A DNA stretch of 64,000 nucleotides. It comes from a virus (lineage: Duplodnaviria; Heunggongvirae; Uroviricota; Caudoviricetes). Below the pieces are notes generated by a model, which was given only the letters and a program-made list of their open reading frames with translations, made no database searches and was not told the DNA's origin. Location of the stretch: IMG/VR virus record IMGVR_UViG_3300042009_000026, positions 224,001 through 288,000 of that record; one strand, 5' to 3'. This document shows, piece by piece, positions 36,948 through 54,014 of the stretch; positions within the stretch are counted from its first letter, which is position 1, and each line of letters starts with the position of its first letter. A program made the translations under genes and the position numbers.

Positions 36948-37511
36948 ATGTCTTATCTGAATCCGAATAAACTTAAAGCTTTCATGGCCAGCCTGGAAGA
37001 TAGCGATGGTGTAGCGCGTCAAGTAGACGTTACCAATGCTAGTGCTTCAGCAACCAAAGATCATCCTGCCTCACCAGAAGCAGAAGCTAACTCTAATGGT
37101 GAAGCAGCTACTGCTGCCGATACCGTGAAGGTTGGTGATGGCGACGGCGTTACTCCAACTATTCAAGACGCCATCAATGCAGGTGTACAAGTTGGTGAAG
37201 ACATCACTAAGATGGAAGAAGCCAAAGCAGCTTGTGAACATCACATTGGTGAAGTAGCTAACTACATCGACCGTAATGAATCTGTTCCACCATCGTTGGC
37301 TGAAGTAATCAAAGTAAGCTTGGCTCGTCATGACCGCAAGTTCTTTGCTCAGACTGTTCCAGCACTGGAAGCTTTCTCAGCACACACTGGTCGTATGACT
37401 ACTTCCATTGATCTGTTGAAACGACTGAAGTCTGGCGTTGATACCATCAGCCGTGGTCTGGATGCAGCCCGCGAACAAAAAGCTCGACTGGAGGCAATTG
37501 CACATGGCTAA
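36948..37511 (+). CDS. Head-protein propeptide-like module (standalone)
   Basis: ASLE and PALE cleavage-type motifs. IKVSLARHDRKFF..VPALEAF is homologous to the propeptide region of 38442..40202. Confidence 0.7.
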   Translation: MSYLNPNKLKAFMASLEDSDGVARQVDVTNASASATKDHPASPEAEANSNGEAATAADTVKVGDGDGVTPTIQDAINAGVQVGEDITKMEEAKAACEHHIGEVANYIDRNESVPPSLAEVIKVSLARHDRKFFAQTVPALEAFSAHTGRMTTSIDLLKRLKSGVDTISRGLDAAREQKARLEAIAHG

Positions 37512-38040
37512 GGTAAAACTTTCTAAACTGTTGCCTTCATTGGAATCGGAAGACGGTACCGCGGAAGTAGTAGAAGCTAAAGAAGTTAGTGCTGAACTGG
37601 GCAAAGCCGAAGTTCAACAAGTAGCTGACGATGGTTCGGGTAAAGGCGACGTAGCTGAAGCTGCTCAAGAAGTAGAAGTTGATGGCAAGGATTATACCGC
37701 TATCGATGAAGCTTCTAAACGTCAAGGTGAGATCATTCACAAGCAACTCGAACGTCTACAGGAAACCGAAGTATCAGTTGAAGCGTATATCGGTGTATTG
37801 CATACAGCTGCCGCTGCCAGTGATACTATTGGTTCTGGTGCTGCAGCAGTTATCAAATACGATCTGACTTCGCGTTATCCAAAATTCTTTAGTAAGGTTG
37901 TTCCATCTGTAGAGTCTTTCGATGGTGAACATGGTCCTGCTCGTACTACTCGACTAGAACGGGTCCTGCTTGGTAAACTGGGCGAGATCAAAACCAGTAT
38001 TGCTAAGAAACAAGAACAGTTGACAAAGCTAAAAAAGTAG
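37504..38040 (+). CDS. Head-protein propeptide-like module (178 aa), extended by a predicted -1 frameshift
   Basis: GGAGG RBS before ATG 37504. PSLE, VSVE and PSVE motifs. IKYDL...PKFFSKVVPSVESF paralogy. Ends CTA AAA AAG TAG. Confidence 0.75.
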   Translation: MAKVKLSKLLPSLESEDGTAEVVEAKEVSAELGKAEVQQVADDGSGKGDVAEAAQEVEVDGKDYTAIDEASKRQGEIIHKQLERLQETEVSVEAYIGVLHTAAAASDTIGSGAAAVIKYDLTSRYPKFFSKVVPSVESFDGEHGPARTTRLERVLLGKLGEIKTSIAKKQEQLTKLKK

Positions 38041-38057
38041 CAGTCTCGAAAGAGACT
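38031..38057 (+). other. Predicted -1 programmed ribosomal frameshift signal
   Basis: In-register A_AAA_AAG (38031-38037), then the stop codon, then hairpin AGTCTC-GAAA-GAGACT (38042-38057). Confidence 0.75.
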
Positions 38058-38375
38058 TATCTAGAAGGTCCTGATAGTACGTTCACGCATCAAGGTAAAA
38101 CCTACAGCGTAGATCGGTTGTTAGAACTAACCCGTGATCTCCCAGTTGTTCAATTCGACATTACTGAACTCGGATGGATGATCGATGATGATTACGATTT
38201 AAAAAGAATGAAGGCTGCCGATACGTCGGTTCCTATTTGTGTCTATCAACTACCGAAGTCTGGGGCTTGGGTAACAATGGATGGTTATCATCGTGTTATC
38301 AAAGCACTCTACGTTGAGAAGCGTAAAACGATACCAGCCAAGATTGTTACAGAACAGCTACGTAAACAGCTTTAA
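38037..38375 (+). CDS. ParB/Srx-like domain, predicted to be translated as the -1 frameshift extension of 37504
   Basis: RMKAADTSVPICV...MDGYHRVIKA...IPAKIV ParB-N motif. The frame is open from 38007 with no start codon until an RBS-less TTG at 38118. Confidence 0.72.
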   Translation, partial: VAVSKETYLEGPDSTFTHQGKTYSVDRLLELTRDLPVVQFDITELGWMIDDDYDLKRMKAADTSVPICVYQLPKSGAWVTMDGYHRVIKALYVEKRKTIPAKIVTEQLRKQL

Positions 38376-51409: not shown

Positions 51410-52123
51410 TTACGTACGAAGAATTTCTTCAATCAGTTCTACAGACTCACTCGGGTTAACTACCGCTGTGTTGATAGCGTCAGCAAAGTAAGCACCGTTC
51501 AATCGGCTAGTGGTATCGGAGGTGTTCCAAACTACAGAGCGGAAAGGAATAACTTTAGGTGGGTTGGTGACAACATCCGAATGGTTATTCAGAATGTGTC
51601 GGTACAGTCGTGTCAGGTCGTCTTTATCACGAGCAGTTGTCGAGATAATCAGTTCCAAGATCGCACGTGAACCCAAGTTAACACCAGCATGCAGCGAAGC
51701 AGTGTCAAACATCTTGGCCATGTCGTAATAGTTCATGTACCACGGAATGTTCCCTTTAGCGACTAGTTCATCGTAAAGGTAATAAGTCAGTGTATCGTTC
51801 ACTACGAGTTGGTTGTTCACAAATACCACATCACCAGGTTCAAAAGAGAACTCAAAGTAATCAGTACCACGAACTGTAACTTTCTTAGTCGAGCTTGGAC
51901 GGATCTGCATCATTGCAATTGTGTTATCAACACCGTAATATTGGTCATTCACAATGAGAGCATAGAACCCAACGATAAAAACTTCAGAACCTAGGATCGC
52001 TAGGTCCTTATTCTGAAATCGTACAGGCACATGAATCTTAACAGGAGCATCTGTAACAGTGCTCCCATTCTCTTGTAGATGTAGGTGTTGGAACACACGC
52101 TTTGCATCGCGTGTTAACTCCAT
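51410..52123 (-). CDS. Virion RNAP-associated subunit (phiKZ gp176-like)
   Basis: 237 aa, lying between the protease and the gp177/178 homologues. The C-terminal SRL.GAYF......V.E...IE.IL resembles the RpoC tail. Confidence 0.62.
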   Translation of the reverse strand: MELTRDAKRVFQHLHLQENGSTVTDAPVKIHVPVRFQNKDLAILGSEVFIVGFYALIVNDQYYGVDNTIAMMQIRPSSTKKVTVRGTDYFEFSFEPGDVVFVNNQLVVNDTLTYYLYDELVAKGNIPWYMNYYDMAKMFDTASLHAGVNLGSRAILELIISTTARDKDDLTRLYRHILNNHSDVVTNPPKVIPFRSVVWNTSDTTSRLNGAYFADAINTAVVNPSESVELIEEILRT

Positions 52124-52395
52124 TACTTGGTCCCCTTGATCTCTTTCTCAACCTTAGCTAAGTCAGCCTTAAATTGTTTCAGTGCTTCCGCAAGATCTTC
52201 CTCATCGGAGAGATACCAGGATTCACAGATACGATCATAAGCTTTCTCTTTCTTAGCATCACCATTGGTAGACGCATTCAGTACTTCCATGCGTGCAATC
52301 AATGGCTCCATTTCTTTAGGATACTTAGAAGCGAGGTTACGTACACGGGTTGACTGGCAACCCGCTTTATGAATACGTTGATCAAGGGTTAACGC
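52123..52395 (-). CDS. 90-aa helical module, predicted -1 frameshift extension of the gp177-like protein
   Basis: The frame is open from 52416 (...GKALTLDQRIHKAGCQSTRVRNLASKYPKEMEPLIAR...). The first ATG (52311) lacks an RBS. Confidence 0.65.
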   Translation of the reverse strand, partial: ALTLDQRIHKAGCQSTRVRNLASKYPKEMEPLIARMEVLNASTNGDAKKEKAYDRICESWYLSDEEDLAEALKQFKADLAKVEKEIKGTK

Positions 52396-52401
52396 TTTCC
52401 C
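52346..52401 (-). other. Predicted -1 programmed ribosomal frameshift signal
   Basis: In-register G_GGA_AAG (52401-52395) one codon before TAA. Downstream AACCC/GGGTT pairing and the hairpin CGGGTTG-CCAGT-CAACCCG (52364-52346). Confidence 0.7.
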
Positions 52402-54014
52402 GAGTGTGCCTCGAGACTAGCATCAGTATCTTCGTCTTCAGCATCCAGTTCATCGGCTTCATCAGTCTCTTCGACCAAAGGACCTTCACCGGTAGCTGCA
52501 TCAGCGATAGCGCCTTCTGCTTCACCACCTGTAGGCTCCTCTAGTGCTGCTGGAGCTTGTTCGATAACTTCAGGCTTGAACCGTTCGACTTGGATCTGAC
52601 TGGCTGCCCAGACAGCGTACAGAGAGAACAGTGCGTTAGTGGACAGTTCACGACGAGAAGCTTCAGGAGCTTCTTGGCCAGCCTTATCCATCAGTTGCAT
52701 ATATTCCCAGTAAGTAGATTCAGGGAAGTAGATACGGCAGATCAGTTGACCGAAAGCAACGAACTCATTGCACAGTTGTTCTGGACGAACAGCACGGATA
52801 GCATCAACGACTTTATCACGCAGACCATCTACTTGCATTTCAGCAAGAGTACCTTGACCAGCTTGATTAACGAATGCTTCGATCATGTCTTGACGACGGG
52901 AACGTTCAGCATTGTCAGTAGCAGCTTGTTGGATCAGTGGATAGATAGCTTGGAACTTCTGAATGAAGTAGACCTTACGCTCTTCTAGTCGAGCTATGGT
53001 TTGGCTACCACTGTTTTCCAGAGCAGAACCCAGGACAGCAGACAGGTCGCCATTAGCAGCACGCCATTGTGGTTCAACGTCACCATTCAGCCATACCACT
53101 AGACGACGGTTCTCGATTGCATTAGCTGCTTCAGCGCGGAGTACCAGCACGCCATTGCGCTGGTCTTCAGCACGACGCTGATAAGCACGCAACAGATAAG
53201 CACCAATCATCTCGTGAAGCATACGCATCACATGCATCCATTCTTCGTAGCCTACATTCATCTCGCCTACTGGTTCGCATGGGTTCTCACCCAGGTGACC
53301 ACACAGGAAGTATGCCAGCAACAGACCATCAATGTTGAAAGGAGCATTAGTCCCAACAACGAAAGAAAGTTCACCAACAGTAAGAGCTTTGTTACGATTG
53401 AACAAGTCAGCATAAGTACGGCTGATGACTTCTGGATCTACACCCAGCAACCATTCGGTAATTTGTTCACGTTCAGCATGTGGGTTATTGATCGAGACCA
53501 TTTCGATGATCTGTTCAACACCTTGAGCTGGGAGAATAAATGTACGGTATTGAGGTTGTGGATTTACGTTTGCATAGTTCTGCAAATGAGAAGTCAAACG
53601 TGGTTCCGAATGGATAGCATTGTAACGGAAGATGTCAGCACGAATATCAGCAGAAGTAGAAGCTTGCTGACGTTCATTGAAGTCACGTACCATCGAGTCA
53701 ATACCCGGAATAACAACGTTGGCTACATTGTACTGGATCTTACCCAGAGCAGCAGCAACCAGACTGACCATATCCTTGTTGTCTTCTTCGACAGTGATAG
53801 GTTGTTCTTCGTTCATTTCGGTAAAGTGATCTTCAACCGATGCAACGAGTTCATCGGATACTTCTGGACCGGCGGTAGGTTCATCTACAGCATAGCCGCT
53901 TGCGAACTGAGCAACAGGAAACTCAGGATTCGGAACGACCAGCACTTGACTCGATTCAGTCAGTTGTTGTGCAATCAGTTTTACAGACTGCACGGTGTTG
54001 GCGATATCAGACAT
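52389..54014 (-). CDS. Virion head protein (phiKZ gp177-like) with an acidic C-terminal tail
   Basis: AAAGGA RBS before ATG 54014 (MSDIANTV). Ends ...EDEDTDASLEAHSGKR. Confidence 0.72.
   Translation of the reverse strand: MSDIANTVQSVKLIAQQLTESSQVLVVPNPEFPVAQFASGYAVDEPTAGPEVSDELVASVEDHFTEMNEEQPITVEEDNKDMVSLVAAALGKIQYNVANVVIPGIDSMVRDFNERQQASTSADIRADIFRYNAIHSEPRLTSHLQNYANVNPQPQYRTFILPAQGVEQIIEMVSINNPHAEREQITEWLLGVDPEVISRTYADLFNRNKALTVGELSFVVGTNAPFNIDGLLLAYFLCGHLGENPCEPVGEMNVGYEEWMHVMRMLHEMIGAYLLRAYQRRAEDQRNGVLVLRAEAANAIENRRLVVWLNGDVEPQWRAANGDLSAVLGSALENSGSQTIARLEERKVYFIQKFQAIYPLIQQAATDNAERSRRQDMIEAFVNQAGQGTLAEMQVDGLRDKVVDAIRAVRPEQLCNEFVAFGQLICRIYFPESTYWEYMQLMDKAGQEAPEASRRELSTNALFSLYAVWAASQIQVERFKPEVIEQAPAALEEPTGGEAEGAIADAATGEGPLVEETDEADELDAEDEDTDASLEAHSGKR

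Follow-up and report, generated by a model that had tools for sequence, protein, structure and literature searches.

How does a head protein gene of a giant Pseudomonas phage end, and is the open frame behind its stop codon read by ribosomes that slip back by one base? The question is raised by a 64,000-nucleotide (nt) stretch of viral DNA, here called the window (positions 224,001 to 288,000 of IMG/VR record IMGVR_UViG_3300042009_000026). The source phage is a giant Pseudomonas phage with a complete IMG/VR genome of 317 kilobases (kb) and terminal repeats, and its DNA is ~81% identical to that of Pseudomonas phage Psa21, genus Tepukevirus. On the minus strand of the window, a gene of the phiKZ gp177 family of head and ejection proteins carries the heptamer G GGA AAG immediately before its last codon, and the -1 frame continues from there for 90 codons. 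A programmed -1 ribosomal frameshift on this heptamer probably appends a 90-residue domain to the gp177-family protein.

Features of the locus are given in Table 1. An AAGGA Shine-Dalgarno sequence precedes the start codon of the gp177-family gene; an alternative start, TTG 54047, would overlap the small upstream gene. The 3′ end of the gene reads AGT CTC GAG GCA CAC TCG GGA AAG CGT TAA and encodes the C terminus S-L-E-A-H-S-G-K-R, with GGA and AAG as the 0-frame codons within the heptamer. In the -1 frame a TAG stands at 52419-52417, and no further stop comes until TAA 52125-52123. No ATG, GTG or TTG lies between that TAG and 52311, and the earliest -1 frame start codon, ATG 52311, stands 28 codons into the extension and opens an open reading frame (ORF) of 62 amino acids (aa). 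The predicted products are a 541-aa 0-frame protein and a trans-frame protein of 540+90 = 630 aa. An earlier reading of the DNA, made before any database search (the sequence-only reading), had proposed that G GGA AAG extends a gp177-like head protein behind an S-L-E motif. All the sequence features it described are correct. Its product lengths of 541 and 630 aa agree with those recomputed from ATG 54014, and the extension stop does overlap the start of the gp176-like gene as TAATG, in which the TAA and the ATG (52123-52121) share one base.

Table 1. Coordinates of the locus, of the second candidate site in the window and of extensions in cultured relatives
Feature	Position	Strand	Details
phiKZ-gp177-family head/ejection protein gene	52389..54014	-	ATG 54014, TAA 52391-52389, 541 aa
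S-V-E, residues 59-61	53832..53840	-	matches mapped prohead-protease site SVE-60 of phiKZ gp177
S-L-E (S/A/G-x-E type), presumed prohead-protease site	52410..52418	-	five residues ahead of the candidate slip
Slippery heptamer G GGA AAG, 0-frame register	52395..52401	-	invariant in seven genomes
0-frame stop TAA	52389..52391	-	one codon past heptamer
-1 frame extension, protein P0002, predicted five-helix domain	52126..52395	-	90 codons, stop 52125-52123
Predicted extended hairpin	52339..52378	-	6-base-pair (bp) lower stem, 8-bp upper stem, 5-nt loop
gp176-family gene	51410..52123	-	phrog_2926; Shine-Dalgarno AAGGGG at 52137-52132
Second candidate -1 site	37504-38375	+	A AAA AAG 38031-38037, stop 38038-38040, -1 ORF to 38375
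PhiPA3 -1 extension	L009 4285-4611		C CCU UUR type
201phi2-1 -1 extension	L029 4869-5231		C CCU UUR type
Phabio -1 extension	L012 2492-2857		C CCU UUR type
Viktualia -1 extension	L007 3085-3429		C CCU UUR type

Seven independent genomes carry the extension: the window, Psa21 (L001/L004), two IMG/VR genomes (L005 and L006), two Logan contigs (L034 and L043) and a metagenome contig (L035). In all seven, TC-GGGAAAG is followed by three variable bases and TAA, and the codon separating heptamer from stop is CGT, CGC or TTC. The heptamer and the following 60 nt are the most conserved part of the region, with 93–94% mean pairwise identity versus 65–71% in the flanks. L043 is the most distant carrier, with a gp177-family protein 53% identical and an extension 47% identical to those of the window. 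Its extension aligns without gaps to that of the window, starting at the first residue past the slip, and it shares the 18 bases around its heptamer unchanged with L005 and L034. The sequence-only reading had staked its case on the heptamer register being conserved in relatives with the ORF; the register is kept in 7/7, down to 53% gp177 identity. It had also called for a comparison of gp176-gp177 intergenic regions across related phages; the heptamer is present in 7/7 genomes with the ORF and absent from the relatives without it.

Ten relatives are free of the extension (D6, RVTF4, phiKZ, PA1C, five metagenomic genomes and L044). Their acidic tail leads directly into the gp176 gene or into a short spacer, and an in-register slippery heptamer occurs in the last 120 nt of the gp177-family gene in 0/10. 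Co-occurrence of heptamer and extension was 14/14 versus 0/10 when counted (Fisher p = 5e-7, without phylogenetic correction). About 17 further gp177 protein clusters, 70–83% identical to the window's protein, are without the H-S-G-K-[RF] ending. By these counts heptamer and extension come and go together, and the module is accessory.

Coding in the -1 frame extends back to the heptamer. The ratio of nonsynonymous to synonymous divergence (pN/pS) is 0.28 in this frame over the 28 codons ahead of ATG 52311 and the same in the 60 codons that follow; over the 28 codons, 0.88 and 2.1 are obtained for the other two frames. Across the first 19 extension codons the ratio in the -1 frame is 0.17. For these stretches the other frames give 0.84–4.5. 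These values bear on the possibility that the downstream ORF is an ordinary small gene with its own start, at ATG 52311 or another internal codon, and that the heptamer is incidental. Gene callers do annotate a small ORF here (Psa21 gp241, 60 aa, and clusters P0004, P0008 and P0009), and standalone homologues of the domain are known elsewhere. However, the window's ATG 52311 is GTT or GTA in four of six close relatives (Psa21, L005, L034 and L035), where the first Met comes three codons later, at the window's TTG. The first in-frame Met stands at extension residue 29, 32 or 14, depending on the genome. No Shine-Dalgarno sequence precedes any candidate internal start in the six close genomes. 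Possible separate starts are seen in L043, which has a TTG at extension residue 8 with a weak AAAGG upstream, and in L006, whose ATG is at residue 14. An own start also leaves unexplained why the heptamer/stop spacing is invariant at 53% divergence and why the heptamer is absent where the ORF is absent. The 28 codons upstream of the ATG, under the same purifying selection as the rest, hold the most conserved motif of the domain family, A-G-C-Q-S, the first of its two conserved Cys residues and two predicted helices. A separate small gene is therefore unlikely.

The 90 residues are predicted to fold as one unit. AlphaFold2, run on a seven-row alignment, gave five helices with a mean predicted local distance difference test (pLDDT) score of 90.4 and a predicted template modelling (pTM) score of 0.79, and helices 1 and 2 (pLDDT >90) precede ATG 52311. 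The 62-residue form, modelled from the same rows, scored 78.1 and 0.59. A search with a profile detected the domain as a protein of its own and as the C terminus of larger proteins. The standalone homologue P0007, 55% identical and in a different genomic context, has a strong Shine-Dalgarno sequence, GGGGGAG, and its ATG falls precisely where the window has the slip, so that its residue 2 aligns with the first Ala past the slip. In Viktualia the same locus holds a standalone form of 107 aa whose leader ends in S-L-E. In P0015 the domain is C-terminal, and the gene adjoins a phiKZ_IP internal head protein gene.

A natural parallel in a distant relative is P0023 (695 aa, Logan SRR13325288 contig), a gp177-family protein (35% identity, E 2e-103) with the domain fused in frame behind S-L-E. 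Its gene order (small gene, gp177, 245-aa gene, Peptidase_S80) is as at the window locus. The would-be slip product of the window thus exists elsewhere as an ordinary gene product. P0023 also allows the locus to be read as a decaying relic, in which a one-base mutation shifted the frame within an ancestral fusion of this kind and production of the downstream part has ceased; that the module is dispensable fits such a history. The ORF is intact in seven genomes under the purifying selection given above, and the extension of L043 is free of stops as well as gaps at 47% identity. Moreover, the break always falls on a perfect slippery heptamer, and the same design recurs with another heptamer and another cargo in eight genomes, described below. 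Decay is highly improbable on these grounds.

Two further observations concern the domain. A standalone homologue of 89 aa with a strong Shine-Dalgarno sequence (L033 30-299, JGI 3300049255 contig) lies near resolvase and DUF6998/DUF8168 genes, an unrelated context which indicates that the module also circulates outside giant-phage head gene clusters. In L043 (4132-4395) both conserved Cys residues are replaced together, one by Asn and one by Ser, which hints at a Cys pair (disulfide or metal). Searches with the 90-aa domain gave no Pfam match, only a weak PHROGs match to phrog_1034, of unknown function, and only generic helical look-alikes in the ESM Atlas. Foldseek against PDB and BFVD returned nothing at E ≤0.001 except the Psa21 orthologue. 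The best hit of the wide VIA-align search was to designed helical bundles, with a Z of 6.3 that is within noise for helical proteins. No further copies of the domain were found in the source phage.

The carrier protein is a full-length homologue of phiKZ gp177, 43% identical to PHIKZ177, and matches phrog_3841 (E 1e-98). Gene order is as in phiKZ: RNA polymerase beta subunit gp178, gp177.1, gp177, gp176 and prohead protease gp175. The gp176-family gene matches its PHROG with E 7e-93. SPN3US gp244, the homologue of phiKZ gp176, was proposed as a fifth subunit of the virion RNA polymerase (PMC5105663), with which the earlier label of a gp176-like RNA polymerase subunit agrees. phiKZ gp177 is a head protein whose injection into the host has been validated (PMC10449902). 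It is cleaved at SVE-60, and 201phi2-1 gp271 at AVE-61 (PMC5694885). V60 and E61 of the N-terminal S-V-E are invariant across the gp177-family alignment.

The motif cut by the phiKZ-type prohead protease (Peptidase_S80) is S/A/G-x-E (PMC10449902, PMC5694885). The motif before the slip is kept in 7/7 genomes as S-L-E, S-T-E, S-M-E or G-L-E. The acidic tail around it is the least conserved stretch of the locus (65–68% mean pairwise identity, with indels), and retention of the motif in an otherwise unconstrained tail fits the published rule. An S-x-E also lies 12–17 residues ahead of the domain core in P0023, L028, P0010, P0017 and Viktualia. The sequence-only reading had a cargo of ~95 aa freed after S-L-E. 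Such release is plausible because the S-x-E is kept, the family is cut by the protease and the N-terminal S-V-E is also conserved. Cleavage at S-L-E that frees the appended domain is thus likely.

In the proposed mechanism, a ribosome nearing the end of the gene would hold the codons GGA (P site) and AAG (A site). A minority of ribosomes would slip one base back, with the tandem Gly and Lys transfer RNAs (tRNAs) re-pairing as GGG AAA, bypass the TAA one codon on and read 90 more codons. Most ribosomes would make the 541-aa protein, and some the 630-aa protein with the five-helix domain at its C terminus. Slip frequency would be low, as in lambda G/GT. Proteins of the gp177 family become part of the prohead, are trimmed by the protease and are injected, so the fusion should carry the domain into the capsid. 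It would co-assemble into the prohead through its gp177 part, giving a low fixed ratio of the domain in the capsid, and the prohead protease would then cut at S-L-E and free a product of ~95 residues. The comparisons above show that the site is conserved, that the -1 frame is coding from the heptamer on and that the domain is a single unit, and the fusion exists in nature as P0023; the slip itself, its efficiency, packaging, cleavage and any action of the domain are what we infer from the features of the locus and its relatives.

The same design is found with another heptamer. In eight genomes (Viktualia, PhiPA3, Phabio, 201phi2-1, three IMG/VR genomes and one metagenome contig) the gp177 gene ends with C CCT TT(A/G), one codon and TAA. 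The four loci of this group that are not in Table 1 are L027, L028, L031 and L039. The -1 frames continue for 105–405 codons, and their products are homologous from the heptamer onward, with an S-x-E ~10 residues past the slip and the first Met 36 codons in. Their pN/pS is 0.42–0.49 in the -1 frame versus 1.2–1.9 in the others. Homology between the 90-aa domain and this second type of extension was considered and rejected (hhalign probability 0.2). One codon separates heptamer and stop in 15/15 genomes (seven with G GGA AAG and eight with C CCU UUR), a constant distance which suggests that the stop contributes to the putative slip, perhaps by pausing.

Two of these extensions are long. That of L028 (4971-6080) has 366 codons and ends with a five-helix domain of the window type behind an S-x-E. 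That of L031 (5022-6248) has 405 codons, the last of which weakly match GNAT acetyltransferases (E 3e-4, short of Pfam's cut-off). Both read as polyproteins composed of a phrog_17560 module, the module common to C CCU UUR-type extensions and a last domain, with S-x-E motifs at the module borders. A 'ParB-like' label for the phrog_17560 module, based on an L-D-G-[FY]-H-R motif seen by eye, was dropped since Pfam gave it no support. In existing annotations the region is a 313-nt gap in PhiPA3, and 201phi2-1 gp270 and Phabio gp260 begin at an internal Met. The listed mass-spectrometry identifications do not include 201phi2-1 gp270.

A second candidate site lies in the window itself, on the opposite strand. 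An internal-head-protein-like gene (phrog_8282, with PF12699 genes on either side) ends CTA AAA AAG TAG. Its -1 frame stays open for another 112 codons; TTG 38118 is its earliest start codon, and S-K-E lies six residues past the slip. The -1 product matches phrog_17560 (E 3e-21), which is also the module within the long gp177 extensions. The equivalent site is GCA AAG TAA in Psa21, and G GGA AAG TAA behind a different upstream gene in D6; both -1 products are homologous from the slip and have an S-x-E.

Together these sites allow a wider scheme, in which slipping, fusing, packaging and cleaving form a general and modular means of loading cargo in nucleus-forming giant phages of the phiKZ type. 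The carriers would be internal head and ejection proteins, and a slip near the stop, on G GGA AAG, C CCU UUR or A AAA AAG, would set a low copy number. The cargo (the 90-aa five-helix module, the phrog_17560 module or, in one relative, the GNAT-like domain) would be interchangeable and freed at S-x-E. It would be injected with the DNA and act in the first moments of infection. The general scheme is offered tentatively and is, on balance, slightly more doubtful than probable.

Several observations weigh against a slip at the window locus. Within one genome, a heptamer with a downstream -1 ORF is not beyond chance. GGGAAAG occurs four times in the 64-kb window versus 5.7 expected. Across the whole 317-kb phage, 8 of 502 ORFs of at least 100 aa have an in-register XXXYYYZ heptamer no more than 25 nt from the stop, and five of the eight have a -1 continuation of at least 40 codons. 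The -1 frame is open for at least 80 codons past the stop in 20% of such ORFs, because the next gene often sits in that frame. The case therefore rests on the comparison with relatives. Among these, many close ones are without the module, which is thus dispensable, and some independent initiation is possible in L043 and L006 at the starts described above. No canonical stimulatory structure was found 5–9 nt downstream of the heptamer. The predicted hairpin begins 16 nt past it, versus that canonical spacing, and shows one-sided changes only, with no compensatory ones. No Lys or Gly tRNA gene was found in the phage genome. For all of these phages, we infer the slip from sequence alone.

The RNA around the site carries some further constraint nonetheless, as shown by low synonymous divergence in the first 19 extension codons (57 nt, 52339-52395), where pS is 0.16 versus 0.65 later, four times lower. 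The hairpin at 52378-52339, predicted by both RNAalifold and RNAfold, is the best candidate for its source, with a z-score of -1.4 that is not significant. L043 has an analogous 8-bp hairpin 18 nt past its heptamer. None of the hairpins in the window, L043 and the C CCU UUR group has a significant z-score or convincing covariation. The aligned relatives show no conserved Shine-Dalgarno-like element upstream, and no promoter-like site, terminator-like site or Rfam family was found in the conserved island. The host lysine tRNA set affects slippage on A AAG. A cluster of ten tRNA genes lies outside the window (G000:C1 57763-63717; Thr, Cys, Ser, Leu-UAG, Leu-UAA, Trp, Asn, Ile, Asp and His). None of the ten reads the Gly or Lys codons at the slip. 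Its Leu-UAA tRNA would read the UUA of the relatives' C CCU UUA heptamer.

The new frame could also be entered without tandem slippage of the ribosome, either by slippage of the RNA polymerase or by restart past the TAA at a non-standard codon. The phages use their own unusual RNA polymerases, and a stop one codon past the heptamer would leave terminating ribosomes near the new frame. Runs of GGG and AAA, or of four C and three T, are far below the length of known transcriptional slippage tracts. For restart, no ATG, GTG or TTG lies near the stop in the -1 frame, and the sole ATT (residue 8) is ATC in two genomes. Protein conservation begins right at the heptamer, and both routes are very unlikely.

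The sequence-only reading had further suggested that frameshifting ribosomes tune translation of the coupled gp176 gene. This part fares poorly. Every relative has the AAGGGG Shine-Dalgarno sequence of the gp176-family gene, whether or not it carries the extension, and the extension stop lies 16 nt ahead of the gp176-family ATG in Psa21 and L005. Tuning is therefore unsupported as a conserved feature.

Giant nucleus-forming phages inject dozens of proteins, and it is an open question how the low-copy ones are selected, dosed and loaded. A simple and directly testable answer would be recoding, close to a protease site, that links exchangeable domains to a head protein which is injected, and Psa21, PhiPA3, 201phi2-1 and Phabio are all cultured. 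Annotations would change: the 313-nt 'gap' of PhiPA3 would be coding, and 201phi2-1 gp270, Psa21 gp241 and Phabio gp260 would start too late. The extensions would then be effectors that are injected and have so far been overlooked, and the strategy would be a counterpart of Gag-Pol in a bacterial virus. In the literature, for which coverage was incomplete, no report was found that gp177, gp271, gp208 or the ejection proteins of giant phages are subject to recoding.

Among the nearest known systems is lambda G/G-T, which uses the same G GGA AAG for a -1 tandem slip near the gene 3′ end and makes a minor longer product in a fixed ratio. The lambda G/G-T slip is not known to need an obvious downstream stimulator. 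The two systems differ in their proteins: in lambda a tail chaperone pair is encoded upstream of the tape-measure gene, whereas here the carrier is an injected internal head protein and the appended domain is self-contained, with a protease site at its border. A further difference is that the 0-frame stop follows the heptamer after one codon in all 15 genomes. The neighbours of the window locus are virion RNA polymerase, gp176 and prohead protease genes, not tail genes, and the features of a lambda-type tail assembly chaperone pair (G/GT) are absent.

The proposed design also resembles retroviral and totivirus Gag-Pol. There, too, the slip is at the end of the gene for a capsid-incorporated protein, its frequency sets stoichiometry, and the fusion enters the particle on its structural part; a particle protease is expected to cut the added part free. 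Here the ribosome is bacterial and the virus a double-stranded DNA phage, with no demonstrated pseudoknot and with cleavage that is predicted only. The cargo is a 90-aa domain and, in relatives, up to 405 codons that include the weak GNAT match. Genes 10A/10B of T7 and T3 likewise have a -1 slip near the 3′ end of a head gene, by which a minor form of a virion protein gains a longer C terminus. In T7 it is the major capsid protein that is lengthened, by a short tail that has neither a protease site nor a domain of its own, whereas the carrier here is an internal ejection protein and the module is also found standalone and fused elsewhere.

The T4 internal proteins share the route into the capsid. 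A targeting part brings these small proteins into the prohead and is removed by gp21 before injection. In T4 this part is an N-terminal, in-frame targeting peptide, whereas here an entire head protein would take this role, linked to the cargo solely through recoding. Bacillus subtilis cdd and Escherichia coli dnaX, in which the Lys tRNA slips on A AAG near the frame end, are relevant to the second site; they depend on an upstream Shine-Dalgarno-like element (and, in dnaX, a hairpin), of which no conserved equivalent was found here. The mechanism itself is thus known, and what would be new is that it attaches protease-releasable cargo to a head protein that is injected.

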